Origin: Escherichia phage phita32 | Direction: 5' to 3' (one strand) | Sequence record: PQ758395 | DNA: 64,000 bases | Shown here: piece by piece, positions 12,039-64,000 of the stretch | How positions within the stretch are numbered: the stretch's first letter is position 1 | Layout: every line of letters begins with the position of its first letter | The notes under the pieces: generated by a model | Told to the model about the DNA's origin: nothing | Databases searched by the model: none | What the model saw: the letters and a program-made list of their open reading frames with translations, nothing else | Program-made: the position numbers and the translations under genes

Positions 12039-12047
12039 TATATCTAA

Positions 12048-12073: not shown

Positions 12074-12086
12074 TCTGGAGAACACA

Positions 12087-21985: not shown

Positions 21986-22248
21986 TATTGTTCCTCCACC
22001 ATAACTTCGCCAAGAATTTCTATGCAGGCATCCATTTCTGTAACAACCAAACTGTGAGGTAGTTCTACAAACACCTTTCTGAACAGGTCAAATGCCCCAA
22101 CATATATGTTTGCAGGATGTGATTTTACAACAAGTGCTGTATTCACATCCCCAAGCTCATCAACAAACATCACCACAGTGCCTGGGGCTACTGAAGACAG
22201 GTACTTCTTAGTTTTACGGTTTGATGCAAATTTTAACTCTGTTGCCAT
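21985..22248 (-). CDS. Small paralog family member 4 (87 aa)
   Basis: Tandem paralog; ends ILGEV like member 3 (ILGET). Confidence 0.4.
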   Translation of the reverse strand: MATELKFASNRKTKKYLSSVAPGTVVMFVDELGDVNTALVVKSHPANIYVGAFDLFRKVFVELPHSLVVTEMDACIEILGEVMVEEQ

Positions 22249-22263
22249 AAATAATCTCCTCCT

Positions 22264-23724
22264 TTATTTAGCGTACTCGATTAATTCCACAGTTTTCCCA
22301 AAGCTAGGGATATAATTTTTATTATACCCTTCGGTGAGAACCCATAGAGTATCGTACTTTTTCCACTTGTTGTCAACAGCCTTTTGTTCAAAGTTATGCT
22401 CAAAGTATAGATCGGTCAGGACGATGACATCTTTTGCATTTGGTATGTTGGCATCCAGATACTCGAACACGCAAGCAGCTGTTGTGCCCCATGTTGAGTG
22501 GACCTCGTAGTTGATCATCTCATCTATGTTGCCGCGAGTGTATACTTTAACCTCTCCAACCTCAGTTGACCAACAGAACATTGTAACCTTAAACTCTTTA
22601 TACAGATTGCACAATCCGGTGATTTCATTGAACATTTTCTTTAAAGTTCTTTGAGAGATCGAGCCAGAAACGTCTAAAGCTACCACAATATCTATGGTGT
22701 TTTCCGGATTACGACCAGGAACAATAACGTGCTGGTTCTTGTTTATAGCCCCAACTTTTCGCATTGTGCTGGTCAAAGACCCAGATCGGCGACCAGGTTT
22801 TCTGTAGGTCAGTTCAGCCTTTCGTTTAGACAACATGCGTTGCTTAATGATGTCTATATAGTTGATTACAGGCTTACCCCTGTTCTTGACAAACTCACGC
22901 ACCGCCTCAGGGCAACGACCTCCGGAAGCTTGCATTGCTGCCTCCAGCATGTCGCCAGAGTCTTGCATGGCCTGATCTTTATCAGATTGGCTGATTACAG
23001 GTTGTGGCTGATCATACCCCATAGCCTTTCCAAGATCATCACTGGTGCCACCGTTCCCACTCATGTGATCATCTGTTTGTCGCTTATCCCCTTGAGAGTT
23101 CTCACCTTTACCGCTCTTACTTTTACCGTTATTCTGATCTCTTTGCTTATCAAGAACTGCATAGACGTTCTCAGCAATCCATCCATGAAACTTCATGTCG
23201 CAGTAGCAGCTGGCTAAGAAGCCAAAAGGCTTACCTTTTACGAACGTAGTGCTTTTCCCCTTCGGGAAGAAAACACAAGGAGGCTTGCTAAAGTCAACCA
23301 CAAGACCTGTGTTGATAACGTGATCACAAGCAATGTTGAACAGTTCCGGCTCAAAGCTTTTACCACGGACCAGGTGATCACAGATAATATGCCCCACCTC
23401 ATGTGACAGAAGAAAGGCCACCTCTTTCACAGATTTTGGGGAATAGAAAACCTCAGCCATCTCAAACTGCTTGTCAGTCAGAGATGCTTTAAGAATGGTT
23501 TTACGCTCATCTGCCAACCCCATAATGAACTCAGGGCTGTAGTAGATGCGTTTATGGTCTGTTGCCATAGTGGAGCACCATGTGTGGTTTTCTACGAACT
23601 GCAACCCTGACAACAGTGTGCCATAAAACGGCAGCTTTTCAAGAAGATACATGCGTGCTGCCTGCAGCATTCGCAAGGCGTCATCTTTTTGTGCGGCAAT
23701 GATTTCTGAACTTCTGCTATCCAT
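22264..23724 (-). CDS. VWA-domain protein with N-terminal HExxH metallopeptidase-like domain
   Basis: HEVGHIICDH zinc motif; VALDVSGSIS (VWA MIDAS-type DxSGS). Probable start is the ATG at 23724 (GGAG RBS) rather than the TTG at 23745, which lies inside a hairpin. Confidence 0.55.
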   Translation of the reverse strand: MDSRSSEIIAAQKDDALRMLQAARMYLLEKLPFYGTLLSGLQFVENHTWCSTMATDHKRIYYSPEFIMGLADERKTILKASLTDKQFEMAEVFYSPKSVKEVAFLLSHEVGHIICDHLVRGKSFEPELFNIACDHVINTGLVVDFSKPPCVFFPKGKSTTFVKGKPFGFLASCYCDMKFHGWIAENVYAVLDKQRDQNNGKSKSGKGENSQGDKRQTDDHMSGNGGTSDDLGKAMGYDQPQPVISQSDKDQAMQDSGDMLEAAMQASGGRCPEAVREFVKNRGKPVINYIDIIKQRMLSKRKAELTYRKPGRRSGSLTSTMRKVGAINKNQHVIVPGRNPENTIDIVVALDVSGSISQRTLKKMFNEITGLCNLYKEFKVTMFCWSTEVGEVKVYTRGNIDEMINYEVHSTWGTTAACVFEYLDANIPNAKDVIVLTDLYFEHNFEQKAVDNKWKKYDTLWVLTEGYNKNYIPSFGKTVELIEYAK

Positions 23725-41031: not shown

Positions 41032-41298
41032 CATTGTGGCTTCATAGAGTAATCTATGTCGAATAACCTCTTTAACTGCGGGAAGCCTAAACCTTATGGC
41101 AAGGTAATCCGCAACGAAGCGCTCAAAAGAGCGAACGCTCAGAGGCCATTCCGAAAGGAAGTAGACCAGCAAGTGCGGTCGAAATGGGAGGATTCCTGTG
41201 GTTGCTTATTATAGGAATATGAGATGGTCCGATCCTACGTGAAAACGTATGGCTATGCACGTAATGGTGCGGGGTAGCTTAACGACCTACCTGAACTA

Positions 41299-50939: not shown

Positions 50940-51450
50940 AGAGATCAGGAGGATTTCTAAAATGGATTTCCTCCTTTTGATATTTTACCTACCAGGATAT
51001 TTTAAAATCCTTAGAAAATCAGAAAATGGATCGAAAACTAAAATGGATTTTTCAGAGCAGGCACGACGAGATGAACCACTCATCCTATCGTTTGCACCAT
51101 ATTCCAGACCACCATTACAGATTTCCCGCACATGCTCACATCCTTCTCCTAGAACTTCCCCCACTTACCCTTGACCTTTTATGGTAATGATATAACCACT
51201 ATCTTGAAGTTGCGGTGCAGCTTTCCAAGTACTCGATCTGTTTTTCGTTTCAAAGATTGAATTTTCTGAAAATTTTTCTCGATAAATTTCTCAGTACTCG
51301 ATCTGTTTTTCGTTTTCTGAATCGGATTTTCTGGAAATCGTTCCGGCTCTCGACCTGAAATTTTTGGGGACGAAATCGATTTTTCGTTTTCAGAAATGGA
51401 TTTTTAAAATTTCTATATGGGAATATTTTAGTGGATACTATTTTATAGGA
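50940..51450. repeat. Non-coding repeat region: AAATGGATTT motifs and about 3 degenerate ~60-bp direct repeats (AGTACTCGATCTGTTTTTCGTTT...)
   Basis: AGTACTCGATCTGTTTTTCGTTT occurs at about 51229 and 51292 with a degenerate third copy near 51350; (A)AAATGGATT(T) recurs at least four times between 50955 and 51400; no credible ORF. Confidence 0.6.
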
Positions 51451-51553
51451 AATTGTTACGGAGGGTAATTAGCGTGCTAATTAAATTTATTAAATGCGAG
51501 GAGTTCTAATTTAGAATTTTGAATGATAATCATTCTCGTTTGCAGAATAACGG

Positions 51554-51575
51554 GCAGGCCCGGTGATTGTCTCCC
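51554..51575 (+). repeat. Conserved element copy 1 (GCAGGCCCGGTGATTGTCTCCC)
   Basis: 22-nt core also present inverted at 61118..61139; 13-mer GTGATTGTCTCCC also at 51697. Confidence 0.6.
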
Positions 51576-51696
51576 GGCCCCTGTTGCCCCGGCTTGTTAT
51601 TATAGTATCACGCAGGACAAAGAAAGCAAGGATTTTTTGCATAAATTTTTAGACGATAATGATAACCGTTCTCATTCTATCTAGCGCCCATCCCCA

Positions 51697-51709
51697 GTGA
51701 TTGTCTCCC
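51697..51709 (+). repeat. Conserved element copy 2 (GTGATTGTCTCCC core in a paralogous ~100-nt unit)
   Basis: Units at about 51519-51620 and 51650-51760 share GATAAT(C/G)AT..GTTCTC..GTGATTGTCTCCC..TAT..CAC.AGG. Confidence 0.5.
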
Positions 51710-52058
51710 CCGTCACCAGGGCCTGCCGTCCTTTCGATAGGTATATTGTGCCACCTGGCGGGGCCGCTGTCAACACCTTTCAAAAAAAAAAAATTATAAC
51801 CAGGTGCGCCCACTGCCAGGACCTGGCGGGGCCAACCTGGCAGGTCCGCGCTATAAAGTGAACAGCTACAGAAGAGGTACAAAAATGAAAGGTAATGCTA
51901 CTCACCTGGAAAATAGTAATTGATGATACGGAAGCTATCGCCCTGGTCGAGAAGGCTAAAACTGAAGCACCGGAACATAAAGAAGAGTACGAAAAACGGT
52001 GGTGATCTGGCAGGGCGGCGGCAGGTGGATTCTATCATAAAAATAATTTAAAATAATT

Positions 52059-52087
52059 GTTGACAACCGGGGGAGTCCTGCTATTCT
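52059..52087 (+). promoter_or_regulatory. Sigma70-like promoter (TTGACA-N16/17-TATTCT)
   Basis: AT-rich upstream region, consensus -35; precedes the gene at 52139. Confidence 0.5.
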
Positions 52088-52138
52088 TATCCTACAAGGT
52101 GAACAACACCGCACTAACTAGTAAAGAGGATAAAAATC

Positions 52139-52351
52139 ATGAACGCATACGGAATCAAAGTACGTCGCAACACTCGCCAGGTGGTAACCGATCAAGTGGT
52201 TTGCCTGGTGGATGTAACCATCAACAACGGGCAAGGCCTTTATAAATTTCGTCGCGGTCATAGTTATACCCTGCAACAGCTTAACCGTTGCGCCCTGACA
52301 AAAGGTCAGATCAACCACTGGTTTAATAAAAAAATAAATATTGACATGTAG
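52139..52351 (+). CDS. Early small protein (70 aa)
   Basis: AAAGAGGA RBS plus own promoter. Confidence 0.45.
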   Translation: MNAYGIKVRRNTRQVVTDQVVCLVDVTINNGQGLYKFRRGHSYTLQQLNRCALTKGQINHWFNKKINIDM

Positions 52352-52369
52352 TCTGAAACAAAATATACT
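52341..52369 (+). promoter_or_regulatory. Sigma70 promoter (TTGACA-N17-TATACT)
   Basis: Near-consensus; overlaps the end of the upstream ORF. Confidence 0.6.
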
Positions 52370-52401
52370 AAAAGCACAAAAGACACTAAGAGGATAAAAT
52401 C

Positions 52402-52800
52402 ATGAAAACCACAACCTTTAATTTTGATAATGCTAACTTCTCTTTTTCTGATGTTAAGAACTGCCGCCGTGATCGCGGATTCTACAAGGCCTATAATCTG
52501 GTTGGCCTTGACGATGATAATAATTTGCACGAAGTGGCGGAGATCCGGTACTATGCCGCCGCCAGTGGTAACACTAACTACTGCGTTTTTTGGATACACG
52601 ACAACAAGAACAATAAGTACGGTTATACTGGCGGCAAGGCGAGCGGTCACGGTTATGATAAAGCCAACGCTGCACTTGAAAGCGCATTAAATGCCATGGG
52701 AATCACTGCTAACGGCTGGATCTATGAAGAAGAATTTTTGGCGGCACTTGCTGCCCACCTGGGCTATAAAAAGCACATTGTAACATGCGCCCACGAATAA
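52402..52800 (+). CDS. Early protein (132 aa)
   Basis: AAGAGGA RBS plus own promoter. Confidence 0.45.
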   Translation: MKTTTFNFDNANFSFSDVKNCRRDRGFYKAYNLVGLDDDNNLHEVAEIRYYAAASGNTNYCVFWIHDNKNNKYGYTGGKASGHGYDKANAALESALNAMGITANGWIYEEEFLAALAAHLGYKKHIVTCAHE

Positions 52801-52811
52801 AAAAAAAATAT

Positions 52812-52839
52812 TTGACACGCCACAAAATTTAAGTAGACT
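52812..52839 (+). promoter_or_regulatory. Sigma70-like promoter (TTGACA-N16-TAGACT) with downstream 5' hairpin GGCGGGAAACATCCCGCC
   Basis: A-rich UP region, consensus -35, then conserved leader hairpin and GAGGAAAA RBS. Confidence 0.5.
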
Positions 52840-52883
52840 ATATACAAAGGCGGGAAACATCCCGCCAACACAGAGGAAAAGCT

Positions 52884-53279
52884 ATGAATAAGAACGTACG
52901 CCGCATCATGAACGAACTGGCAAACGATGAAAAAATTATTGACATGCATTTGGTCAACATTTGCCGCCGTTGTGTAACATACAACAACCGCGCCGCAAAA
53001 GCGCGTGAGATGAACGCAAAAGGCACCTTAAAGCCCTTTCAGGTGGTTGTAAAATCTATAACTAATGCAGCAGGCCAGGCGCATGATCACAACAACGAGA
53101 GCACTAATATTGATCCGTCTTACGTAATGAAACGGATCCGGACTTGCAAGAATAAAGAGCAGGTGTATAACGTCATAGATTGGCTTGATTCCATGGGCGA
53201 CGTGGTTTACAATAGATTTTCTGCAGCTATTGAAATTCAGTTAGACAGGTTGGACGGGAAAGTACTAAAAACTTACTGA
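52884..53279 (+). CDS. Early protein (131 aa)
   Basis: Promoter, leader hairpin and RBS all present. Confidence 0.45.
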   Translation: MNKNVRRIMNELANDEKIIDMHLVNICRRCVTYNNRAAKAREMNAKGTLKPFQVVVKSITNAAGQAHDHNNESTNIDPSYVMKRIRTCKNKEQVYNVIDWLDSMGDVVYNRFSAAIEIQLDRLDGKVLKTY

Positions 53280-53280
53280 G

Positions 53281-53326
53281 TTTATTTTTAGATGGCCTTG
53301 ACTCCAGGGCCATCAATAAAGTAAAC
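53281..53326 (+). repeat. 46-nt intergenic palindromic element, copy 1 (TTTATTTTTAGATGGCCTTGACTCCAGGGCCATCAATAAAGTAAAC)
   Basis: 7-bp stem GATGGCC/GGCCATC with TTGACT in the loop; near-identical copies at 53902 and 57619, variant at 54247. Confidence 0.65.
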
Positions 53327-53359
53327 TAATCCCAGTTAAGCGAAAAAGGAGGCTTGAAG

Positions 53360-53479
53360 ATGAGCACTACACGCCAGCACACAAAGGTAACTATTATCGT
53401 TTGCATCATTGGTTATATCCTGGCGCAAATGTTGATGGGTAGCGCCAACGGTGTCGCAAAATTTTTCTTAAACTTTTAA
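53360..53479 (+). CDS. Small hydrophobic peptide (39 aa)
   Basis: AAGGAGG RBS at 7-nt spacing; predicted single transmembrane helix; below the track cut-off. Confidence 0.3.
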   Translation: MSTTRQHTKVTIIVCIIGYILAQMLMGSANGVAKFFLNF

Positions 53480-53506
53480 TTGACAAGCTAACTTAGATCA
53501 GTATAC
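53479..53506 (+). promoter_or_regulatory. Sigma70 promoter (TTGACA-N16-TATACT) with leader hairpin
   Basis: Followed by CGGGAAAACTTCCC hairpin and AAGGAGA RBS. Confidence 0.55.
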
Positions 53507-53558
53507 TAAACACATAAACGGGAAAACTTCCCAGAACACACAAAAGGAGAAAAACACC

Positions 53559-53900
53559 ATGACTACTATGACCGCCGCAGAAAAAGCTATTCAGGTTGCA
53601 GCACTGAAAAAACAGATCGCAGACCTTGAGAACAAGATCGATAACTTTGAAATCGACGAGGACAAGTACGACGAAAACTATGATGAATGGTTAGACGAGA
53701 TCTACGGCGAAATTATGATCGGAAACATTTCTTTTCTTCCGTCGCGTATCCTCAAGGAGCTAGATCCTATCGCTTACCGCTGCGGATTTAGCGACTACAT
53801 CGACAGCCTGGATATTGAGGACGATGAAGAATACCAGGAATTACAGACAGAGTTGGAAGAAGCAAAAGAAGAGCTTGCAGAACTGGAAGAAAACGAGTAA
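53559..53900 (+). CDS. Early acidic coiled-coil protein (113 aa)
   Basis: Own promoter and RBS; strongly acidic (DE-rich) C-terminal half. Confidence 0.45.
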   Translation: MTTMTAAEKAIQVAALKKQIADLENKIDNFEIDEDKYDENYDEWLDEIYGEIMIGNISFLPSRILKELDPIAYRCGFSDYIDSLDIEDDEEYQELQTELEEAKEELAELEENE

Positions 53901-53901
53901 A

Positions 53902-53947
53902 TTTATTTTTAGATGGCCTTGACGCCAGGGCCATCGATAAAGTAAAC
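53902..53947 (+). repeat. 46-nt intergenic palindromic element, copy 2
   Basis: Two substitutions relative to copy 1 (TTGACG loop; CGATAAAG). Confidence 0.65.
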
Positions 53948-53989
53948 TTTATACTGTTAACACTGAACTAATACAGAGGAGTTAAAACC

Positions 53990-54235
53990 ATGGCAGCACT
54001 AATCACCAAATACTATGCACCGACCAACACCAAAAGCGCACGCATCTTGGTAAAAGGATTCGGACGTAAAAAGGTTTACACCTGGGATTATGCCTTAGAC
54101 ATGGAAGACAACTACACCAACGCGATGACAGATTTTATTAATGAACTAAATAAACAGATCTTAACCAATTATAAGGTGACCGACATCGCCTATGTTGGGG
54201 AAGGTGGGATCTGTTTTGTCGGTATTGTCAAATAA
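53990..54235 (+). CDS. Early small protein (81 aa)
   Basis: GAGGAG RBS. Confidence 0.45.
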   Translation: MAALITKYYAPTNTKSARILVKGFGRKKVYTWDYALDMEDNYTNAMTDFINELNKQILTNYKVTDIAYVGEGGICFVGIVK

Positions 54236-54246
54236 GCTGTTTTTCG

Positions 54247-54278
54247 GTGGCCCTGGTGGCAGGGCCATCTATAAAGAT
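54247..54278 (+). repeat. Variant of the palindromic intergenic element (TGGCCCTGGTGGCAGGGCCA + TATAAAG)
   Basis: Same GGCC..GGCC stem type and downstream ATAAAG, but no TTGAC in the loop. Confidence 0.45.
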
Positions 54279-54309
54279 AGTTTATTAACACCATGAAAGG
54301 AGAAAGTAC

Positions 54310-54663
54310 ATGATCAGTGGGGCTAGTTTTATTATTGGCGCTATTGCTACGGCTTTAATTGTAAACAAGATCCAGGATAAAAAGGAAAGAGGAAGTACCG
54401 ACCTTGCAGAATATCCATTTTGGACATTCAATGATAACGAAGATTATATTGTAAAGTATAAAAATAAAGAAGGTGACCAAGTAACACCGCGACCGATCCC
54501 GGCTTACAAGATGCAGGAAACACTATACCGCTTGGAGGCGGGAGGCGCAAAAATTGTGGACTTTTGGGGATACGATCACACAGATCAGGAAGTTATAAAG
54601 CGCCGTATCCGGGCTATTCAGGCCAATATTGAAGTTAGCAAGGGGGGAATATATGAAGATTAA
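54310..54663 (+). CDS. Early membrane-anchored protein (117 aa)
   Basis: AAGGAGA RBS; N-terminal hydrophobic helix. Confidence 0.45.
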   Translation: MISGASFIIGAIATALIVNKIQDKKERGSTDLAEYPFWTFNDNEDYIVKYKNKEGDQVTPRPIPAYKMQETLYRLEAGGAKIVDFWGYDHTDQEVIKRRIRAIQANIEVSKGGIYED

Positions 54664-54850
54664 TTTTGAGAAGATTGTAAAGCGATCTCATGATTCCGAA
54701 GAGCTGCCGGAACGCCGCCAGCGTAACAATAAACTGAATAAGCCAAAAAGATTTGGGAAGATCTGGCGGAATCATTATGATCGTAAATTGCCGGGCCTCC
54801 TTTTGGAACGTGAACGACAGGCGGAACGATACCGCCACAAAGGCAAATAA
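54653..54850 (+). CDS. Early small basic protein (about 65 aa)
   Basis: ATG at 54653 after GGGGGGA RBS; highly basic (R/K-rich); terminator follows. Confidence 0.35.
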   Translation: MKINFEKIVKRSHDSEELPERRQRNNKLNKPKRFGKIWRNHYDRKLPGLLLERERQAERYRHKGK

Positions 54851-54858
54851 CAACCAAC

Positions 54859-54884
54859 GCCCCGCTATTGTGCGGGGCTTTTTA
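54859..54884 (+). terminator. Intrinsic terminator (GCCCCGC-TATTGT-GCGGGGC + T-run)
   Basis: Perfect 7-bp GC stem then TTTTTATTT. Confidence 0.65.
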
Positions 54885-55009
54885 TTTCTATCCCGCCGAT
54901 AGCGCCCCTGGTTGGCCCCACAACGCCCTAAAGGCCCCCTACCTATGCAATCTCCTTTCTTAACCTGAAAACATCGTCAAAGGCCGTTTTAAAGCGTTAA
55001 AAATATTGT

Positions 55010-55037
55010 TGACATCTAAAATATTCTAGATATACTA
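55010..55037 (+). promoter_or_regulatory. Sigma70 promoter (TTGACA-N16-TATACT)
   Basis: Near-consensus boxes. Confidence 0.55.
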
Positions 55038-55071
55038 ATCACATCAAAGCGAGAAGTAAGGAGTAAACGCC

Positions 55072-55341
55072 ATGCGTAAATTGAAAAATTTTGATAAAGT
55101 CGATGTTGTCCTAAATAATTTTTACTACTGCAATAATAAAGCCGTTTGGTGGCGCGATAATTCCACCGATAAGGTTAAGGCGCGCTTTCTCCAAGGGTAC
55201 TGGCAAGGCCGTCCAGTGATTAAAATCCTGGGGCAATTGGTAGCGTTTAAAAATTGCCGCCGTGTTGACGACGTTGAAGAGATTTTAAACATTTTGCGCC
55301 ACAATAATTTAAAAATAGTGTTGACAAGTAAATATCGATAA
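55072..55341 (+). CDS. Early small protein (89 aa)
   Basis: AAGGAG RBS plus own promoter. Confidence 0.45.
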   Translation: MRKLKNFDKVDVVLNNFYYCNNKAVWWRDNSTDKVKARFLQGYWQGRPVIKILGQLVAFKNCRRVDDVEEILNILRHNNLKIVLTSKYR

Positions 55342-55348
55342 GTATACT
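55321..55348 (+). promoter_or_regulatory. Sigma70 promoter (TTGACA-N16-TATACT) with leader hairpin GGCGGGAAAACTTCCCGCC
   Basis: Promoter overlaps the end of the upstream ORF; conserved leader hairpin at about 55359-55377. Confidence 0.6.
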
Positions 55349-55405
55349 TAAACACACAGGCGGGAAAACTTCCCGCCACTAACAAAGAAAATAGGAGAAA
55401 ATATC

Positions 55406-56029
55406 ATGACCACCGTTAACATTACTACAGGTTACAATTTATCTTTCGACGTGCTGACCGACGAACAAAAAGAAAAAGCCGTTGAAATGGTCCGCGAAAG
55501 AGAAGAACACAGCGGGGATAACTTTTTTGCAGAAAGTGTAATTGAATACTATAAAGAGTATGTTTTTCCAGAGTACGGGCTTGAAGATACAGAGGTACAT
55601 TGGTCCGGCTTTTGGTGCCAGGGTGACGGCGCGTCAATCAGTGCTGAAAACGTGGACTTAGAAAAATTCTTGCGTAAAGTCAAGTCTCTGACTAAATTCC
55701 GCTCAATTCGCCACTTGTTCGGCACAATGCATGACGGGGAATTATCAGCCAGTGTTGAACGTGACACATACAGCCGCTATAGTCACGAAAACACTGTAAA
55801 CGGATACATCGATACTACTTGGCTAGACCTAACCGCCAAACAAGAAAACAAAGTGGAAGATTTGGAAGAGCTGATCACCGAGACGGTACGGGAGTTATCC
55901 CGCAAGGTTTACGTAGACTTGGAAGCGGCCTATTTGGAGCAATTCACATCTGAAAACTTGATCGGCCTTATCGAGGCCAATGATTGGCGGTTTGATGTCG
56001 ATGAATATGGTGAGATGACTTTTTCATAA
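55406..56029 (+). CDS. Early protein (207 aa)
   Basis: AGGAGAAAA RBS; acidic protein. Confidence 0.45.
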   Translation: MTTVNITTGYNLSFDVLTDEQKEKAVEMVREREEHSGDNFFAESVIEYYKEYVFPEYGLEDTEVHWSGFWCQGDGASISAENVDLEKFLRKVKSLTKFRSIRHLFGTMHDGELSASVERDTYSRYSHENTVNGYIDTTWLDLTAKQENKVEDLEELITETVRELSRKVYVDLEAAYLEQFTSENLIGLIEANDWRFDVDEYGEMTFS

Positions 56030-56037
56030 ATAAAGTG

Positions 56038-56065
56038 TTGCAATAACCTAAAAACCTGTTATATT
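56038..56065 (+). promoter_or_regulatory. Sigma70-like promoter (TTGCAA-N16-TATATT) with leader hairpin GGGGCAAGACGTTTGCCCC
   Basis: Promoter, leader hairpin and AAGAGGAAAA RBS. Confidence 0.5.
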
Positions 56066-56118
56066 AAAACTCAAGGGGGCAAGACGTTTGCCCCACACAA
56101 AACAAAGAGGAAAACATC

Positions 56119-56499
56119 ATGAAAAACACTACTAAAGCTATTGACACCGTTATGTTTAACCTGGTTACCTTTCGCGAGGATATGAAAGATCTTCCACGTG
56201 AAACAGTGTGCGACCATATCGAAAACTATCGCAAACTAATCAAAGAGTTGCCTTTAAAACGTGACCAGTATGCGGCTAACGCTATGCTTAACGCTATGAT
56301 CAAAAAGATGATCCAGTGTGATTTAACTCTGGCCTATGATTATGCAGGTGGTCGTTTTGCAGTATACAATCGGCCCGTGCCTGGTATGAGCACCACCGAA
56401 GAATTGCACGCGCTCAATCTAAAACAAGACGTGTGGGATAGTATGCCCCGCGTGGTGGTGTGGGCAGAAAGCGGAAAGATTTACGGCGATAATTTTTAA
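56119..56499 (+). CDS. Early protein (126 aa)
   Basis: Own promoter and RBS; terminator follows. Confidence 0.45.
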   Translation: MKNTTKAIDTVMFNLVTFREDMKDLPRETVCDHIENYRKLIKELPLKRDQYAANAMLNAMIKKMIQCDLTLAYDYAGGRFAVYNRPVPGMSTTEELHALNLKQDVWDSMPRVVVWAESGKIYGDNF

Positions 56500-56508
56500 T
56501 CAGGTAAC

Positions 56509-56536
56509 AGGCGGCGGCATATTTGCCGCCTTATTG
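56509..56536 (+). terminator. Intrinsic terminator (GGCGGC-ATATTT-GCCGCC + T-rich)
   Basis: GC stem followed by TTATTGTT. Confidence 0.5.
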
Positions 56537-56566
56537 TTAAACAGAACTGTAAAAGAGGTACATAGA

Positions 56567-56926
56567 ATGGAATTTATTATTCTGACTGTATTAGTTGCCT
56601 TGTTCAACGCCTGGATCGCTGGCAAGGTAGGCAGATCCGCTTTCTTATGGTTTATTATATCTATTTTCCTGGGAGTGGTTGCAACTATCATATTGGTTAT
56701 CCTTGCAATTGTTGACAAAGGTAATAATAGAAAGGGTAAAGTATTTTCCGACCTGTATGACGCACAAACGTTCGTCAACGCCTATTATGGTGATCTCCCG
56801 GTATCCCTACGCTGCAGCCTGGCACAACAGGTTTTTGATGAAGCTAAAACCAGAGATCAAGCCCATGAGATATGTTTAACTGAGGCGGATCGCCTATTTG
56901 AGAGGAATAGAAAATATGTGGGCTAA
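56567..56926 (+). CDS. Early membrane protein (about 119 aa)
   Basis: ATG after AAAGAGG RBS; two predicted transmembrane helices. Confidence 0.4.
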   Translation: MEFIILTVLVALFNAWIAGKVGRSAFLWFIISIFLGVVATIILVILAIVDKGNNRKGKVFSDLYDAQTFVNAYYGDLPVSLRCSLAQQVFDEAKTRDQAHEICLTEADRLFERNRKYVG

Positions 56927-57161
56927 CCGTTTAAATAACTCCGCGCTAATTAATCCCTTTAGTGAAGATTTGAAGCCAGCCGCCTGGCGTGATGGATTCA
57001 ATACCGAAGGATTTATTTTCAGGCCTGATCTTGAGGAATTTTATAACAATGGATCGAACAACGACAGAGATAATTTTTCTTGTGATGTGCGTAGCGATGG
57101 TACTCCTGGGGGCCATTGCAAACCACATCACTACTACCAGGGGGAAAGGGGGAGACGATGA
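56916..57161 (+). CDS. Early small protein (about 81 aa)
   Basis: ATG at 56916 after GAGAGGAA RBS; 11-nt overlap with the upstream gene. Confidence 0.35.
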   Translation: MWANRLNNSALINPFSEDLKPAAWRDGFNTEGFIFRPDLEEFYNNGSNNDRDNFSCDVRSDGTPGGHCKPHHYYQGERGRR

Positions 57162-57277
57162 CAACCAAGGATAAGCCCCGCACCGATAAGGCGCGCCGGG
57201 TTATGGTATGGCTTGAGATCATCGCCCTTGAAATATTGCTAGGCGTAGGGATGTACTTTATCGCTGTAAGTAACTAA
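57158..57277 (+). CDS. Small membrane peptide (39 aa)
   Basis: ATGA start/stop overlap with the upstream gene; GGGGGAGA RBS; hydrophobic C-terminal half; terminator follows. Confidence 0.3.
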   Translation: MTTKDKPRTDKARRVMVWLEIIALEILLGVGMYFIAVSN

Positions 57278-57282
57278 GAACG

Positions 57283-57310
57283 GCCCCCGATCATGGGGGC
57301 TTATCTTTTT
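57283..57310 (+). terminator. Intrinsic terminator (GCCCCCGATCATGGGGGC + T-run)
   Basis: Stem-loop followed by TTATCTTTTT. Confidence 0.6.
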
Positions 57311-57332
57311 AAAAAATTTCCCTTCCAGGGTG

Positions 57333-57360
57333 TTGCAATCCGGTCCGCAATATGGATAAT
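57333..57360 (+). promoter_or_regulatory. Sigma70-like promoter (TTGCAA-N16-GATAAT) with leader hairpin GGGGAGCTAATCCCC
   Basis: Shares CAATATGGATAATA with the promoter at 58149. Confidence 0.5.
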
Positions 57361-57416
57361 AACAATCAACGGGGAGCTAATCCCCACCAACACAAAAACC
57401 AGAAAGGAGAAACAAA

Positions 57417-57617
57417 ATGAGCAACAATATCCGCGTTATTAACTTCAAAAAAGAAGAAAAAATTGCCGTGCTGATTGACGGTCAAGAAATCTTCAAGGGC
57501 TATTATGAAGATCATCAAACGGCGATTAGTATCACTCGCGTGATCGGTTACCATAATTTCTACCCCCAAGGCGCTGAGGCAGCGGTTAAACGAATCAAAG
57601 AGATTGTAGGCCTGTAA
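57417..57617 (+). CDS. Early small protein (66 aa)
   Basis: AAAGGAGAAA RBS. Confidence 0.45.
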   Translation: MSNNIRVINFKKEEKIAVLIDGQEIFKGYYEDHQTAISITRVIGYHNFYPQGAEAAVKRIKEIVGL

Positions 57618-57618
57618 A

Positions 57619-57664
57619 TTTATTTTTAGATGGCCTTGACTCCAGGGCCATCAATAAAGTAAAT
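57619..57664 (+). repeat. 46-nt intergenic palindromic element, copy 3
   Basis: Hairpin and TTGACT loop identical to copy 1. Confidence 0.65.
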
Positions 57665-57707
57665 TTTAATCGTGATAAAATAATCAGTGCAAAAAGGAGT
57701 AATGATC

Positions 57708-58007
57708 ATGTTCATACCCGCCAATAATCTTTATTTCTTTGATGGTCAAATCGTAGACGGTGTGGAGGTGGAGATCACCGGGTGCCCTGGTGGTCAGGTT
57801 ATGACTTTCCGGAATAATGCCTTTGATGATTCTCATATCGTTATGAGAATGGAAGTTAGTAAGCTAGATGATAAGAAAACATTGATTGACTATTCCGTCA
57901 AAGATCATCCAGACTACCACATGATCTATGGTGATTTGTGCATTGTTGACCGTGACAAGGTGGGCGGCATTGTGATCGCTATTGTGAACGATGTTTTCTC
58001 TGTATAG
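57708..58007 (+). CDS. Early protein (about 99 aa)
   Basis: ATG at 57708 after AAGGAG RBS (the track GTG at 57687 contains the RBS). Confidence 0.4.
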   Translation: MFIPANNLYFFDGQIVDGVEVEITGCPGGQVMTFRNNAFDDSHIVMRMEVSKLDDKKTLIDYSVKDHPDYHMIYGDLCIVDRDKVGGIVIAIVNDVFSV

Positions 58008-58065
58008 TTCCGGTAAATGATGCAAAATAAGGCCCCTAGCAGGGCCTGCAGCGATATAATCACAT

Positions 58066-58099
58066 AAAGGCCATGCAACCGCATGGCCTTTATTATTTT
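58066..58099 (+). terminator. Intrinsic terminator (AAAGGCCATGC-AACC-GCATGGCCTTT + T-run)
   Basis: 11-bp stem followed by ATTATTTT; preceded by a second hairpin AGGCCCCTAGCAGGGCCT at about 58030. Confidence 0.6.
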
Positions 58100-58148
58100 G
58101 GCGTTACAGCGGCCCCCAAGGTGCTTAAAAAATTTTTTAAAGAAGTAC

Positions 58149-58176
58149 TTGCATCAAGCCCTACAATATGGATAAT
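58149..58176 (+). promoter_or_regulatory. Sigma70-like promoter (TTGCAT-N16-GATAAT) with leader hairpin GGGGG-GCGG-CCCCC
   Basis: Paralogous to the promoter at 57333. Confidence 0.5.
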
Positions 58177-58232
58177 AGGACGTGTCGGGGGGCGGCCCCC
58201 AATCATTAACCGGATAGATAGGAGTTAAAATC

Positions 58233-58517
58233 ATGGCTATTGTTACCGTTGGCGATGTAGTAGAAATGGAAGCAAAATACTTAAAAGCGGGTATGCATAT
58301 CCTACGGAATGATCAAGAGTTACTATTAACGATGGTCGACTATAATCCCGGCCAGGATTATCCAAGCATCGACTACTTTTTTGAGTATGTTGATGAAGAG
58401 TTGAAAGAGGATGAGGCCTATTGCGGTGAGTTCTGCAACTTCTTTTGTCCTGATGAGGTTGTAAAGGTTATTTATCAACCTGGCGTAGCTTTCCCGCTGC
58501 ACGCTATCAATAAATAA
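58233..58517 (+). CDS. Early protein (94 aa)
   Basis: AGGAG RBS; followed by a GGGGCC-GAAAA-GGCCCC hairpin. Confidence 0.45.
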   Translation: MAIVTVGDVVEMEAKYLKAGMHILRNDQELLLTMVDYNPGQDYPSIDYFFEYVDEELKEDEAYCGEFCNFFCPDEVVKVIYQPGVAFPLHAINK

Positions 58518-58582
58518 ACCTGGCGGGGCCGAAAAGGCCCCTACAGCATAAAATCATAAAAAATAAAGAGAGGCAAATCATC

Positions 58583-58816
58583 ATGATGGAACAAATTAAA
58601 CGCGCCGAGGCTATTAATGGCAATGTGATCTATTTTGTTAGCAATAACGAAAAAGGCGTACCATATGCAGCGGTAATAGTGCAGCCTGACGGCGATTATT
58701 GGTTTACTGTATACGGATCTTATTCTTTCGGGCGTCCGGTGCATGATAGAATTTTAAAAGTAGCTAATCCAACCGGGAAGAATATCACAGCAGAAAAATT
58801 TTTTGAAAATAGTTGA
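58583..58816 (+). CDS. Early small protein (77 aa)
   Basis: AAAGAGAGG RBS. Confidence 0.45.
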   Translation: MMEQIKRAEAINGNVIYFVSNNEKGVPYAAVIVQPDGDYWFTVYGSYSFGRPVHDRILKVANPTGKNITAEKFFENS

Positions 58817-58843
58817 CATGACCGTATAAGACTGTAGTATATA
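58813..58843 (+). promoter_or_regulatory. Sigma70-like promoter (TTGACA ... TATATA) with leader hairpin GGGGGCAAGCCCC
   Basis: -35 overlaps the upstream stop codon; followed by leader hairpin and AAAGAGGA RBS. Confidence 0.5.
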
Positions 58844-58889
58844 AATCAAAGGGGGCAAGCCCCACCAACCACAAAGAGGATAAAAAATC

Positions 58890-59069
58890 ATGGCTATTAT
58901 TGCAAAGACCGAGATTTTAGGTTTAGATTCTATTCTCCTGGCATACGAGGAAGCTATAGAAATGTATGTGGTTTCCTATGGTGAGTATATCCGTGAATAT
59001 GAATCTATTGATCTAGCTTTTGAATGTTATATTCACCAGGTAAATAAGGCATATGATGATTATCGTTAA
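58890..59069 (+). CDS. Early small protein (59 aa)
   Basis: Just below the track cut-off; has promoter, leader hairpin and RBS. Confidence 0.4.
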   Translation: MAIIAKTEILGLDSILLAYEEAIEMYVVSYGEYIREYESIDLAFECYIHQVNKAYDDYR

Positions 59070-59075
59070 AATAGT

Positions 59076-59103
59076 TTGACAACAGTCAACAATCTGGTAA
59101 AGT
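59076..59103 (+). promoter_or_regulatory. Sigma70-like promoter (TTGACA-N16-TAAAGT) with leader hairpin GCGGGAATACTTCCCGC
   Basis: Promoter followed by leader hairpin. Confidence 0.45.
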
Positions 59104-59151
59104 GTACTACATAGCGCGGGAATACTTCCCGCCATTAATGAGGGTAATTTA

Positions 59152-59298
59152 ATGAAAACTTTCAACGCAACGGCCTCGACAATTGGTTATATTATTACAG
59201 TACAAGCCGTGGATCTGGTAGCAGCAGCAAACAAGATTAAAAAGATGATTCCGCCAGGCAGTGAATTTTCCGTTTGGGAAGTAAAAAATAAATCTTGA
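59152..59298 (+). CDS. Early small protein (48 aa)
   Basis: GAGGG RBS; below the track cut-off. Confidence 0.35.
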   Translation: MKTFNATASTIGYIITVQAVDLVAAANKIKKMIPPGSEFSVWEVKNKS

Positions 59299-59322
59299 CG
59301 ATAATTTGTTATCTGATAGAAT
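59295..59322 (+). promoter_or_regulatory. Sigma70-like promoter (TTGACG-N16-TAGAAT)
   Basis: Overlaps the upstream stop; followed by a GC-rich leader hairpin and GAGGAAAA RBS. Confidence 0.5.
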
Positions 59323-59382
59323 GTATTTCGTAGGGCGGGGAAATAAGGCAACGCCCCACATCAACCGGAAGAGGAAAACAAG

Positions 59383-59619
59383 ATGAGTATTGCGACAATA
59401 TTAACCGCTGTTAAAACCGCTGAACGTTCCGGCCTGCAAGTTGAGATTATAGATCAACCAGGTGGCGATCTCCTTGTCCAAGTTTACCCGCCGAAAGTAG
59501 GGGATGATTATTATTGGTGTTATTCTGATACGTTCGAACAAGTAGACACGAAAGCAATAACCGCCTTTATTTTAAAAGCCGTTGAAGAAAATAACTTGCA
59601 CAATAACGTCAATCAATAA
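59383..59619 (+). CDS. Early small protein (78 aa)
   Basis: GAGGAAAA RBS. Confidence 0.45.
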   Translation: MSIATILTAVKTAERSGLQVEIIDQPGGDLLVQVYPPKVGDDYYWCYSDTFEQVDTKAITAFILKAVEENNLHNNVNQ

Positions 59620-59673
59620 ACCATAAGCGAAGTGGTAACGCCCCATTAAACGCAATAGAAAGAGGATAACTAC

Positions 59674-59778
59674 ATGAAACAGAAATTAATTGATGCGGTG
59701 ATCCTGGTTATTGCCCTAGGTATTGGCCTGATTGCAACCATGGCTAATATGATCTTGTCTTCCAACGGTATCGGATAA
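59674..59778 (+). CDS. Small hydrophobic peptide (34 aa)
   Basis: AAAGAGGATAA RBS; predicted single transmembrane helix; leader paralogous to that of the gene at 60095. Confidence 0.35.
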   Translation: MKQKLIDAVILVIALGIGLIATMANMILSSNGIG

Positions 59779-59787
59779 GGTGGGCAA

Positions 59788-60003
59788 ATGATCACCAACA
59801 AAACAGGCAAAACAGAATTTTTACGCAACTTGCAGATCGGCAAGCCTGAGATCTGGTATTGCACTAAAACACCACGTGACGAAATGAAAGACTTCACCGC
59901 CACGCTGCAACGGGTGAAGATATCTATCACACAGAAAAAGGCCTTACTAGTGGTGGAAGGTGAGATCCCCCAAACCGTTGTTATAGTTGAGCGTACAGCA
60001 TAG
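59788..60003 (+). CDS. Early small protein (71 aa)
   Basis: AAGGTGGG RBS. Confidence 0.4.
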   Translation: MITNKTGKTEFLRNLQIGKPEIWYCTKTPRDEMKDFTATLQRVKISITQKKALLVVEGEIPQTVVIVERTA

Positions 60004-60094
60004 TTTAATTTATACAGATACCTGAAAATTAACCAACAAAGCATAAACAGGCGGTTACCGCCGCCTTAAACGTAGCAGAAAGAGGATAGACACA

Positions 60095-60379
60095 ATGAAA
60101 AAGATGATCGCAGTGGTTTCCCTGGTTGTTGGACTTAATGCGCCTGTAATGGCTAAAGAGCTGGCAAAAGAGGTTGATCTAACGGATATCCATGCCGTCA
60201 ATCAAATCGGGGTTACTTATCGCTTATGCCTTGCCGCTAAAACTTTTAATGACGGCACAACAGAGTACTACGGATTCGAGGGTATCCGGTGCGGTGAGCT
60301 TGCTCGCGACCTTAAGGAAGATCCAGACCTGGAAGATCTGCCCATCACCGTAAACGGTAAAGCTTACGTAGACCGTTAA
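60095..60379 (+). CDS. Small secreted/periplasmic protein (94 aa, signal peptide)
   Basis: N-terminal MKKMIAVVSLVVGLNAPVMA signal-peptide-like sequence; AAAGAGGATAG RBS. Confidence 0.45.
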   Translation: MKKMIAVVSLVVGLNAPVMAKELAKEVDLTDIHAVNQIGVTYRLCLAAKTFNDGTTEYYGFEGIRCGELARDLKEDPDLEDLPITVNGKAYVDR

Positions 60380-60381
60380 CC

Positions 60382-60522
60382 ATGAGAAAGATAATCATCA
60401 CCTTGGGGATTGTGGTAGCAATATTGGCGCTCTTTCCCCTTATGGTTAGATATGTGCTGATACGTGCTGTTCTAGTGGTCAGCGATCTGGTGTTATATAT
60501 ATATATTAACTTACTGTTTTAG
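60382..60522 (+). CDS. Small hydrophobic peptide (46 aa)
   Basis: ATG 2 nt after the upstream stop; very hydrophobic; no clear RBS. Confidence 0.2.
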   Translation: MRKIIITLGIVVAILALFPLMVRYVLIRAVLVVSDLVLYIYINLLF

Positions 60523-60718
60523 GTGCGATAATGACCACTGATGAAGCTGTAAAAGTGTTGGCGGTATTGAGATAACATAATCAGACAAAAGTTATAAACG
60601 ATCCTGATTATGTTGACTCAAAGCGTGAAGATGAGACATTGACCGCAATAGGGATTATTCAAGAATTGCTAAAGCGCATGACAGAGAAAAACCGACCTGA
60701 CTACATAGGGGGTAAAAT

Positions 60719-61030
60719 ATGATCGCTATTACGCCAACCGTTTTAGATTGGTATCGGCAACGCATAGCGCTTCCGCTGGCTATCTTCAAAGATGCGGAAG
60801 CAAAACAACGCCGGATCTCAATACATGAGATCATCAACCTTAACGCTGGAGGCACACCATACCGTCCAGGACCTGGCCGTGAGATGGACAATACGTTAGC
60901 GATCCTGAAGATACGCCGTAAACGGTCCTCCCTTACGCTGGACTCATTACACACAATGCAGTCTCCGTTCCAGGTGACCGGGAAACGGATCGCCAGGTCC
61001 TGGACAAAGGCCAATGATCGGACCGTATAA
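60719..61030 (+). CDS. Hypothetical basic protein (103 aa)
   Basis: GGGGG RBS; preferred over the overlapping antisense 179-aa ORF because it is co-oriented with the array. Confidence 0.3.
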   Translation: MIAITPTVLDWYRQRIALPLAIFKDAEAKQRRISIHEIINLNAGGTPYRPGPGREMDNTLAILKIRRKRSSLTLDSLHTMQSPFQVTGKRIARSWTKANDRTV

Positions 61031-61060
61031 ATAAAAAGTGTTTTGGTACTGATTTTGGGG

Positions 61061-61089
61061 TTGACTTGTTCGGCCCCTTTTGCTATTCT
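61061..61089 (+). promoter_or_regulatory. Sigma70-like promoter (TTGACT-N17-TATTCT), -35 within a GGGG...CCCC hairpin
   Basis: Reads through the inverted copy of the 22-nt element. Confidence 0.4.
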
Positions 61090-61117
61090 TATTAAACGGG
61101 CGGCACTTGGGAACAGG

Positions 61118-61139
61118 GGGAGACAATCACCGGGCCTGC
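61118..61139 (-). repeat. Conserved element copy 3, inverted (GGGAGACAATCACCGGGCCTGC on the + strand)
   Basis: Exact reverse complement of 51554..51575. Confidence 0.6.
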
Positions 61140-61165
61140 CTGTCATATAAGAACTATAAAAACCT

Positions 61166-61194
61166 TTGACATCTGCCATGGGGTGAGGTAACAT
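61166..61194 (+). promoter_or_regulatory. Sigma70 promoter (TTGACA-N17-TAACAT)
   Basis: Followed by a leader hairpin and GGAGAGAGGAAAA RBS. Confidence 0.5.
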
Positions 61195-62449: not shown

Positions 62450-64000
62450 CTCCTCTTTTCCTACCACAAACGGCCAAGCCTGGCAAGTGGAATAATTGAC
62501 TAGCCAGCAATTACCAACACTGTACAAACATACATGTAAAATAGCTATTGCATAATATTTCATTGTGTGGTAGCAGGGCCATTTTTACCCGCTTTTCCTT
62601 CCAAAACTGCATGTAATTCCACTATTGCACAAAATTTAACCTGATGCACAATATCTCTTTCTTGTCAACAACTAAAAATCTTTATAAGTCATACACTTAC
62701 ATAACCACAAAAGCGTGTTCTACGTGAAAAATCGGGTATAACTATAGCCACTAAATTCCAGAATTCACGTAGCGTCACCATTCTATAGCCCGCTAAGTAT
62801 TTATTCCGACCATAGAATAACGGAATAGTCAATACCTGCATAAAATAATTATTCGTGTAAACTGCATAACATAAATCAGCTAGGGTGTCAACATTTTTCG
62901 TAAACAGCTTGAAATTATCACGGTGAGTTATCATAAGCAGATAAATCTTTAGTCGTCTAATGTTTACTGTACGTTACTATACTAACTGAAATCATTAGAT
63001 GACTAAGAGAAAGATAAGAAATCATTAACAATGCAATTGTTTTATTCGTAACAATAAGGCAACTATGCAAACGAATGGCATGGCGCGACGGAGTCGCGAC
63101 ATAATATAAAAGCAGTAACCATCACCCCCGTGATAGTTTGTCTGCAAACTATTAATCAGATCATAGTTGCCTTGTATTTAGTTAATCATGACATAAACTC
63201 AGGCATAGCCTTCGTCTCGAGGATGTTAACAAGCAAGGCAACTATAGATCTGCTAATAGTTGCCCTGCTTTTATATTATGTCATAGAAACACCCGAAGGG
63301 GTGACCAAAGGTCACCTGGCATAGCCAGTGAAAGATTATTAACTTGCTAATTGTCAACTTGTTGGCTGTTAGCTTGTCAATTGTAAACTAGTTAATTGTT
63401 ATCATGCAAACGAATGGCATGGCTTATCATCTATGCGTGAACTATCCAGGCGTAAACAGTCTATGTGGGAACAATCTATACGTGAACAGTGAAACATGAA
63501 ATAATAACAGTCGTTATTGTGGCGTATTGTGCTGCAGTATGTCATATTGTGTCAGACAAGTTTTTCTCCTCTTTGTCAAGTGCTGCATGAAAAATTTACA
63601 ATCTTGTATGGTAGCATTTTGCGGCCCTGTTTACATTCAGGAATGTATGTATAATCCTTGTTGTGTGGGCGTTTAGACGTCTGGACGGTCAGAAGTCTGC
63701 AGGTTAATATCTAATCTATTGGCTGCTAACTATATCCCCCACAAATAATAAGAAATATAATTGTTATATGTGTAAACCGTAACTCATGTTATCAATCCCT
63801 GTATGTATCGCCAGTGGTGCGCATAATGGGTATTATGTTAAATTGCCCGTAATGATAACTATTCTCACAATGATAGGTATTCTCATTCACCCCACAAGAT
63901 AGGTTGCAAATGTTGTGCCACTGTGTGAACGGCCTCACCTATTAATTTGCCTCACTGCCTCGATATTTGAGAATTATTATAAGAATGAAAAGTATTCCCA
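62450..64000. repeat. AT-rich non-coding region with dispersed repeats and palindromes
   Basis: GCAAACGAATGGCATGGC twice (about 63066 and 63407); GGCAACTAT / ATAGTTGCC inverted pairs (63058-63270); TTGTCAA-containing direct repeats (63351-63400); palindromes CGCGAC-GGA-GTCGCG (about 63085) and GGTGACC-AAA-GGTCACC (about 63300); no convincing ORF with an RBS. Confidence 0.5.

Follow-up and report, generated by a model that had tools for sequence, protein, structure and literature searches.

What is the function of a short sequence that is repeated, in inverted orientation, at both ends of an early-gene array in a virulent phage? Such a sequence, a 22-mer, is present in Escherichia phage phita32 (PQ758395), of which a stretch of 64,000 nucleotides (nt), hereafter the window, was analyzed. 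The initial annotation considered three explanations: site-specific inversion or cassette mobility, regulatory sites shared by both ends of a transcriptional domain, and small structured RNAs. Judging by the cassette that contains it, the repeat seems to belong to an iron-sensing control element that has not been described before, and not to be a site of DNA inversion. The window belongs to an rV5-like myovirus; about 91% of an 11-kb stretch aligns with Escherichia phages I29, CM1, EdH4, and slur16, and 258 phage records match this stretch. The rV5-like myoviruses (Vequintavirinae, Stephanstirmvirinae) are abundant coliphages and candidates for therapy and biocontrol.

The 22-mer is part of a 135-bp cassette

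The 22-mer GCAGGCCCGGTGATTGTCTCCC occurs as exact copies at 51554–51575 on the + strand and at 61118–61139 on the - strand. The pattern search finds no third match in the window with up to three mismatches allowed, and none of 100 dinucleotide shuffles contains any match. The 13-mer GTGATTGTCTCCC is seen at 51563 (+), 51697 (+), and 61118 (-), where 0.06 matches are expected by chance. Both the inverted pair and the recurrence of the core at 51697, as first annotated, are thus confirmed. The inverted repeat reaches 29 nt at 93% complementarity (51547–51575 and 61118–61146), and 9,542 nt separate its arms. Between the arms, the bracketed block is made up of small genes on the + strand, which have promoters and terminators of their own. 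The small proteins flanking the repeats have no Pfam family and correspond only to PHROGs of unknown function.

The 22-mer is not a stand-alone element, but the most conserved segment of three paralogous cassettes of about 135 bp. Alignment of the window loci with their counterparts in ESCO13 (Phapecoctavirus) and DU_PP_I (Certrevirus) shows homology over about 135 nt, beyond the 22 nt. An nhmmer profile built from the three window loci and these counterparts finds three units in the window, with E-values from 1e-22 to 1e-28. The paralogous unit noticed at the outset is therefore real, and only its size, given as about 100 nt, was understated. The cassettes (u1, u2, and u3) and their repeats are as follows; P_A and P_B are the two predicted promoters of a cassette.

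51517–51652, + strand (orientation of P_A): cassette u1; nhmmer E=1.5e-28, aligns with copies of other genera
51554–51575, + strand: left 22-mer, containing the core GGTGATTGTCTCC (51562–51574); approximately the first 22 nt of the predicted P_A1 transcript
51653–51787, + strand: cassette u2, tandem to u1; nhmmer E=4.7e-22, supported by alignment
51697–51709, + strand: core copy of u2, GTGATTGTCTCCC; pattern search
61040–61173, - strand: cassette u3, inverted, without a Fur box in phita32; nhmmer E=1.4e-26, supported by alignment
61118–61139, - strand: right 22-mer; its + strand complement lies at about +22 to +44 of the predicted P_B3 leader

All units share one order of elements, described here in the sense of u1. 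The 5' half contains a -35-like TTGAAT, which overlaps a 19-bp palindrome, and a -10-like CAGAAT. The middle, about 45 nt, holds the near-invariant core GGTGWTTGTCTCC. The 3' half contains, as reverse complements, a -10 (TATTCT, TACTAT, or CACAAT), a spacer of 16–17 nt, and a -35 (TTGACT, TTGCTT, or TTGACA). Each unit can be read as two putative sigma-70-type promoters, P_A and P_B, facing each other. Their predicted transcripts overlap by about 40–48 nt around the near-invariant core. The two tandem copies mark the left border of the early-gene block, and their P_A reads into it. At the right border, the inverted u3 keeps only P_B, and its P_A side is replaced in phita32 by another predicted + strand promoter.

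Predicted facing promoters and a Fur-type palindrome

The predicted promoters and palindromes of the three cassettes are listed below.

51519–51548, + strand: P_A1; -35 TTGAAT (51519–51524), 18-nt spacer, -10 CAGAAT (51543–51548); direct sequence reading
51522–51540, no strand: Fur-box-like palindrome of u1, AATGATAATCATTCTCGTT, in a 9-1-9 frame; fills the -35/-10 spacer of P_A1
51602–51629, - strand: P_B1; -35 TTGCTT (51629–51624), 16-nt spacer, -10 TACTAT (51607–51602); direct sequence reading
51655–51676, no strand: Fur box of u2, GATAATGATAACCGTTCTC; 16 of 19 positions of the classical E. coli consensus, 0.05 matches expected per window
51745–51773, - strand: P_B2; TTGACA, 17-nt spacer, (TG)CACAAT with an extended -10; consensus scan, 10 of 12 positions
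61061–61089, + strand: P_B3; TTGACT, 17-nt spacer, (TG)TATTCT; consensus scan
61166–61194, + strand: second + strand promoter of u3; TTGACA, 17-nt spacer, TAACAT; consensus scan; occupies the position of the Fur box and P_A of u1 and u2

P_B2 and P_B3 are recovered by the scan, while P_A1 and P_B1 come from sequence reading together with the cross-genus footprint. P_A1 is absent from the simple consensus scan because its -10 is weak. Its predicted start is at about 51554–51556, at or beside the first base of the 22-mer. P_B1 reads leftwards from a predicted start at about 51595, and its positional homologues are TTGACT/TATTCT in u3 and TTGCAA/TATATT, TTGCTT/TATTCT, and TTGACC/GATAAT in other genera. 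Upstream of the P_B2 -35, an A-run (51781–51792) corresponds to a T-run on the - strand; the predicted start of P_B2 is at about 51738 on that strand. The -35 of P_B3 is in the loop of a terminator-like hairpin (61057–61077), and the predicted start is at about 61096; this promoter is kept as TTGACT/TTGCAA ... TATTCT/TATACT in Certrevirus and Phapecoctavirus. In the alignment, the hexamers of P_A and P_B hold their positions across genera, while the flanks vary and the spacers are unrelated. This is the footprint expected of real promoters.

The putative P_A of both left copies is overlapped by the 19-bp palindrome. In the 9-1-9 frame, the box of u2 is AATGATAACCGTTCTCATT (51658–51676). The consensus of the phage palindromes, AATGAGAATCATTCTCATT, is identical to the Xanthomonas Fur-box consensus (PMC1790865). 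That consensus was derived from Fur-regulated genes, and it has the 9-1-9 frame of the Fur boxes of Shewanella and Bacillus (PMC1790865). The Fur boxes of A. baumannii listed in PMC3055841 also resemble the phage palindrome.

A host counterpart is found at the promoter of fhuA. The box and spacer of u1 contain the 18-mer ATAATCATTCTCGTTTGC; 17 of its 18 bases, among them an unbroken run of the first 16, agree with the fhuA promoter site ATAATCATTCTCGTTTAC. In Escherichia, in Shigella, and in one record that carries the label Enterobacter, ATAATCATTCTCGTTTAC immediately precedes fhuA (MARSKTAQPK...), and it is also found upstream of FhuA-like genes in Hafnia and Izhakiella. At the corresponding position of the fhuA upstream sequence, there is a -10-like hexamer. 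Chen et al. confirmed by gel shift a predicted Fur site in the fhuA promoter region (PMC2189734), and we infer that this site is ATAATCATTCTCGTTTAC. As a separate observation, dozens of Pseudomonas species have the 18-mer ATAATCATTCTCGTTTGC conserved at a single locus (e.g., L148, L173, and L192), where it is presumably the Fur box of an iron-regulated gene.

Fur-repressed sigma-70 promoters are known from Enterobacterales, the aerobactin promoter iucA being one of them. Based on the comparison with fhuA, the cassette likewise has a 19-bp Fur-type palindrome between the predicted -35 and -10. Unlike these host promoters, it resides in a virulent phage, drives no iron gene, and has a second promoter facing it about 40–48 nt away. 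Also unlike them, it is preceded in related genera by three to four boxes about 29 bp apart, and the binding of Fur is predicted.

Fur-type boxes are confined to two non-coding regions of the window, and both clusters recur in relatives. The left cluster adjoins u1. In ESCO13 and DU_PP_I, the three to four boxes are upstream of u1, and in Vequintavirus a degenerate copy is seen 29 bp upstream of the u1 box. The palindrome is constant across phages of many enterobacterial hosts, which makes binding by a conserved host factor a simpler assumption than binding by a phage repressor that co-evolves with its site. By sequence the palindrome is a Fur box, and Fur is its candidate binder.

The right cluster (63851–63887 and 63966–63984, with boxes at 63853, 63871, and 63968) is in a gene-free region of 2–3 kb to the right of u3. 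Its counterparts are at 5736–6464 of locus L027, 22432–23185 of DU_PP_I, and 22181–23215 of GEC_vB_MG. The region is a switch of transcription direction and contains base 1 of several GenBank records. In I29, a tandem duplication of about 594 bp doubles the boxes of this cluster.

Taken together, the repeats could be the core of a Fur-gated antisense or transcriptional-interference cassette; we give this reading about an even chance. P_B has a good consensus, and P_B3 would serve as the rightward early promoter at the right border. In an iron-replete host, iron-loaded Fur on the boxes would silence P_A, and P_B would fire. P_A would fire in cells whose Fur is inactive because iron is scarce or because replicating phage DNA titrates the regulator. 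The P_A RNA, which would begin at or beside the first base of the 22-mer, would interfere in cis with the facing P_B, and it would pair with P_B leaders both in cis and in trans. The iron status of the host would in this way be coupled to expression at both borders.

The pairing in trans would follow from the geometry. Because u3 is inverted, the + strand RNAs of the two borders are complementary over 22 nt: the predicted P_B3 leader has, at about +22 to +44, a perfect complement of the first 22 nt of the predicted P_A1 RNA. When both core RNAs were scanned for duplexes across the 64-kb window, only the three cassettes emerged, the next sites being about 12 kcal/mol weaker. A purely cis antisense pair is free to change, whereas a pairing constraint among several paralogous copies would leave the core unable to drift.

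It can be speculated further, tentatively and with the balance against it, that virulent rV5-like phages carry a host-Fur-gated RNA circuit, in which a Fur-repressed transcript from the left border pairs with the operon leader of the right border via the 13–22-nt core. As part of this circuit, the Fur-box clusters at both ends of the early region might sense or titrate the iron regulator of the host. If true, this would be a rare case of a strictly lytic phage that wires a metal-sensing repressor of its host into the early programme, which would be tuned to the iron status of the host. It would also define a compact iron-responsive promoter cassette with an invariant motif of 13–15 nt. As iron is normally limiting in the gut and in infected tissue, the efficacy of the phages in vivo could be influenced by such control.

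No description of the cassette was found in the literature searched. The genome analysis of rV5 (PMC3606486) and the genome paper of Certrevirus CB7 report generic sigma-70 promoters only, without a mention of the element. The only other Fur boxes that turned up in the searched phage literature are in a cargo operon (sit) of a temperate phage.

Layout across phages and the rival readings

The arrangement of the cassettes is conserved beyond Vequintavirus. One or two + units are followed, 7.4–9.5 kb rightward, by one - unit in every relative in which both borders were compared: six Vequintavirus loci (L018–L023), ESCO13 and 536P1 (Phapecoctavirus), DU_PP_I and POP18 (Certrevirus), and GEC_vB_MG (Seunavirus). 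The complete 136-kb genome of Aya contains exactly three units and none elsewhere at E<=10, and no further exact core copy is present outside these units. Two queried border stretches match 249 and 256 phage records. In distant relatives (Phapecoctavirus and phages of Klebsiella, Salmonella, Pectobacterium, Cronobacter, Erwinia, and Serratia), the DNA-level alignment of these stretches is limited to cassette islands of 55–85 nt. BLAST of the first unit against 5,426 E. coli genomes gave no match at E<=1, implying that the cassette as a whole is not derived from the host. A scan of IMG/VR with the 15-mer core was uninformative, as it returned more than 120 mostly unrelated contigs, consistent with chance. 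Two longer patterns returned 11 contigs and 1 contig, mostly of rV5-like size.

Under the inversion hypothesis, the 9.5-kb block would flip by site-specific or homologous recombination, with crossovers in the 22–29-bp inverted repeats. In favor of inversion there is the geometry alone, and also the u1 allele CAGGCCC, which equals the u3 allele and suggests occasional gene conversion between the copies. The extra identity of u1 and u3 in phita32 probably comes from conversion of u1 by u3. Against it, the bracketed block is colinear with its flanks in the six Vequintavirus loci and ESCO13, and also in the top 30 records, and the interior genes of ESCO13 and DU_PP_I are all on the strand of their flanks. 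tblastn of the window and the complete Aya genome with Hin and Gin gave nothing significant (best E-value 0.044); this search did not cover tyrosine recombinases. The repeats are inside promoter cassettes, away from gene-swap junctions, and a flip would set about 30 early genes against the surrounding transcription. Inverted repeats at the borders are thus the one mark of an invertible segment that is seen here; the other two, a recombinase gene and both orientations among isolates, were not found in the genomes and loci compared. Short inverted repeats around a multi-kb segment are likewise found in Mu G/Gin, P1 C/Cin, and Salmonella Hin. Unlike those segments, the phage block has no recombinase homologue found and no inverted isomer among relatives, and its repeats are embedded in promoter cassettes. 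Inversion, the first idea raised for this locus, is extremely improbable, and cassette mobility is not supported. The idea of shared regulatory sites at both ends of a domain comes closest, in that predicted promoter/operator cassettes mark both borders in at least four genera.

Sequence conservation within the cassette is uneven. Across genera, the P_A side of u1 is more conserved than the other side (identity 0.76 versus 0.69), and the P_B side of u3 more than the other side (0.71 versus 0.60). The core reaches 0.86–0.91. The conserved halves of u1 and u3 are thus those that would give + strand RNAs, in the direction of the genes, and these RNAs are mutually complementary. An identity of 86–91% in the core would permit duplexes of 12–22 bp in every genome, with no co-variation in the flanks.

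Several facts weigh against a Fur-gated antisense or interference cassette. In Aya and locus L011, u1 has CACCCCC while u3 has CAGGCCC, and the u1 and u3 cores of ESCO13 differ at 4 of 12 positions. The length of the u1/u3 identity is not accompanied by co-variation, so the perfect 22 nt may reflect shared ancestry and gene conversion instead of selection for pairing. No terminator follows the predicted P_A RNA, which is thus not a classical small RNA (sRNA). All the promoter and operator calls rest on consensus matching and the phylogenetic footprint. The -10 of P_A is weak (CAGAAT) and is degenerate in phiTE and locus L009 (CGGAAT in both) as well as in u2; P_A of u2 in the window is doubtful. 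The palindrome could be bound by a conserved phage protein instead of Fur. Finally, a near-invariant asymmetric motif of 13–15 bp is equally the signature of a protein-binding site.

The last point leads to a different explanation, in which the core CCGGTGWTTGTCTCC is a DNA or RNA site of one sequence-specific host or phage protein, just downstream of the promoters at both borders of the early block. Its role would be that of an operator, roadblock, or insulator, possibly in an orientation-dependent manner, and the RNA complementarity would be incidental. The core is kept as primary sequence while the adjoining stems and spacers drift, there is no conserved RNA fold, and the flanks of u1 and u3 do not co-vary. 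In four genera the inverted orientation of the copies is retained, and a polar site would be expected to show this. Host-factor motifs, on the other hand, did not fit: IHF, DnaA, CRP, sigma-54, ops, Ter, matS, and PhoB motifs, compared with the core by eye only, gave no match. No candidate binder was found, and an asymmetric site of a monomeric binder is less common than a palindrome. On this evidence the protein site is rather unlikely.

One small gene with a helix-turn-helix (HTH)-like sequence was considered as the binder of the palindrome or the core and was set aside, since it has no homologue in the window. It encodes a protein of about 90 amino acids (MTNT..LGWQGGTVHQVAsATGLkVetVLnL) in Phapecoctavirus and phiTE, on the opposite strand beside u1, and reads towards the cassette. 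It is found on the - strand at 13320–13586 of locus L001, 1476–1760 of L004, 3972–4238 of L025, and 1814–2080 of L003. The HTH resemblance was seen by eye, with no Pfam match, and in the window u2 occupies the position of this gene.

Small structured RNAs, another early proposal for the repeats, fare differently in its two parts: the repeats do reside in predicted transcribed leaders, and they show neither a conserved fold nor an Rfam match. In this proposal the units encode small sRNA-like or riboswitch-like RNAs whose fold is the functional element. The units are directly downstream of predicted promoters, and many of the copies, taken singly, allow an imperfect hairpin whose apex lies near part of the core. 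However, the RNAalifold energy of 34 units is about zero in both orientations, per subfamily and overall, and the folds of single sequences do not surpass those of shuffles (mean z-scores -0.5 and -0.9), with no preference of the core for the unpaired state. Rfam gives no match at the cassette loci, either at the gathering threshold or at E<=10, and the relevant strand shows no intrinsic terminator after the units. Structured RNAs are thus very improbable here. As no fold is conserved, the core is conserved as primary sequence.

ARAGORN detects neither a transfer RNA nor a transfer-messenger RNA. An antitermination leader like lambda nut or HK022 put, with the element in one sense downstream of each early promoter, was rejected, because the + strand leaders of u1 and u2 have the element in one sense and that of u3 has it in the other, and no conserved two-stem fold is seen. 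A coding role was rejected as well. Open reading frames overlap the units, and some coding sequences (CDSs) in GenBank cross them, but indels between copies argue against translation. Hypothetical CDSs are annotated across cassettes at 1124–1411 of locus L005 (Gotham F10B_0202) and 11998–12240 of GEC_vB_MG (gp240c); based on the indels, the CDSs annotated across cassettes are probably not genes.

The left non-coding region might alternatively be a replication origin or a part of one, which we regard as improbable. The palindromes would be iterons of an initiator, the AT-rich repeats of 65–78 nt an unwinding region, and the outward P_B transcripts G-rich primer or activator RNAs. In ESCO13 and DU_PP_I, the three to four dyad sites about 29 bp apart adjoin AT-rich direct repeats; in the window, three repeats of 65–74 nt are at 51219–51404; and G-runs are seen on the P_B strand. 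Overlapping RNAs from face-to-face promoters are a typical feature of replication control in plasmids. Against an origin, the palindrome is too close to Fur boxes for a phage-specific iteron, and there is no inflection of GC skew at 51.5 kb. u3 in phita32 has no adjacent iterons or AT-rich repeats. In rV5 the skew changes only at switches of transcription direction (PMC3606486).

The three direct repeats at 51219–51404 are just to the left of u1 and share the common core CTCGATCnGTTTTTCGTTTT. At the equivalent position, DU_PP_I has three repeats with the core CTCGATCnGTTTTTCGTTTT (12701–12881), and ESCO13 has instead AT-rich repeats of about 70 nt, 138 nt apart. The repeats left of u1 could be iterons, terminators, or protein sites.

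Comparison with known systems and other features of the window

Face-to-face promoter switches acting by transcriptional interference are known from P2 (Pe/Pc) and 186 (pR/pL). As in these phages, the cassette has two convergent promoters, here predicted, that are less than 100 bp apart with overlapping 5' transcripts, and one of them would be under repressor control. P2 and 186 are temperate and use the switch, with phage repressors, for the choice between lysis and lysogeny. In contrast, phita32 is virulent, the candidate repressor is host Fur, and there are three copies, one of them inverted.

Phage antisense RNAs include c4 of P1/P7, which acts in trans via short complementary boxes, and sar of P22. 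With the cassette they share a short RNA, here predicted, that is complementary to an mRNA leader transcribed at another place or opposite it. A 22-nt duplex makes about two helical turns and is roughly the minimal length of an RNase III substrate. Unlike c4 and sar, no processing signals, structure, or terminator were recognized in the phita32 cassette, the pairing is predicted, and the target genes are of unknown function.

The Fur-regulated sRNAs RyhB and PrrF are a third comparison. PrrF1–PrrF2 of Pseudomonas are tandem Fur-regulated sRNA genes, and u1 and u2 are likewise two tandem paralogous units with a Fur box before each. Unlike PrrF and RyhB, they lack a Rho-independent terminator and a conserved fold; they have no Rfam match and do not resemble these sRNAs in sequence. 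In the proposed reading, the cassette would operate as a Fur-repressed promoter set opposite a constitutive one, with traits of the P2/186 switches, of phage antisense RNAs, and of the tandem PrrF genes. By sequence or fold, the cassette is outside the P2/186, antisense-RNA, and PrrF families.

The promoter-early stem-loop (PeSL) cassettes of T4-type phages are numerous and located between most early genes, a trait that they share with the D1 repeat family of the window. They resemble the present cassette as repeated promoter-containing units in a plastic early region, and the -35 of P_B3 in a hairpin loop adds to the likeness. Unlike PeSL and D1, the present cassette has exactly three copies, which are at the borders and are characterized by the Fur box and the invariant core.

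Other repeats are also present in the window. Cassettes of 55 nt lie between early genes at 53276–53330, 53897–53951, 54231–54285, and 57614–57668. They consist of a GC hairpin (GATGGCC...GGCCATC) followed by an AT-rich stretch and resemble terminator-promoter cassettes of other large phages. The 14-mer ACCTGGCGGGGCC(G) occurs five times (51753, 51821, 51835, 52005, and 58518); one copy is in the spacer of P_B2, and two are adjacent (51821–51848). A perfect 18-nt inverted repeat, GACATAATATAAAAGCAG, is in a gene-free region at 63098–63115 and 63265–63282; its arms are separated by 149 nt. A group I catalytic intron is found at 41016–41251 on the + strand (Rfam RF00028, 63 bits, E=1.2e-13, above the gathering score).

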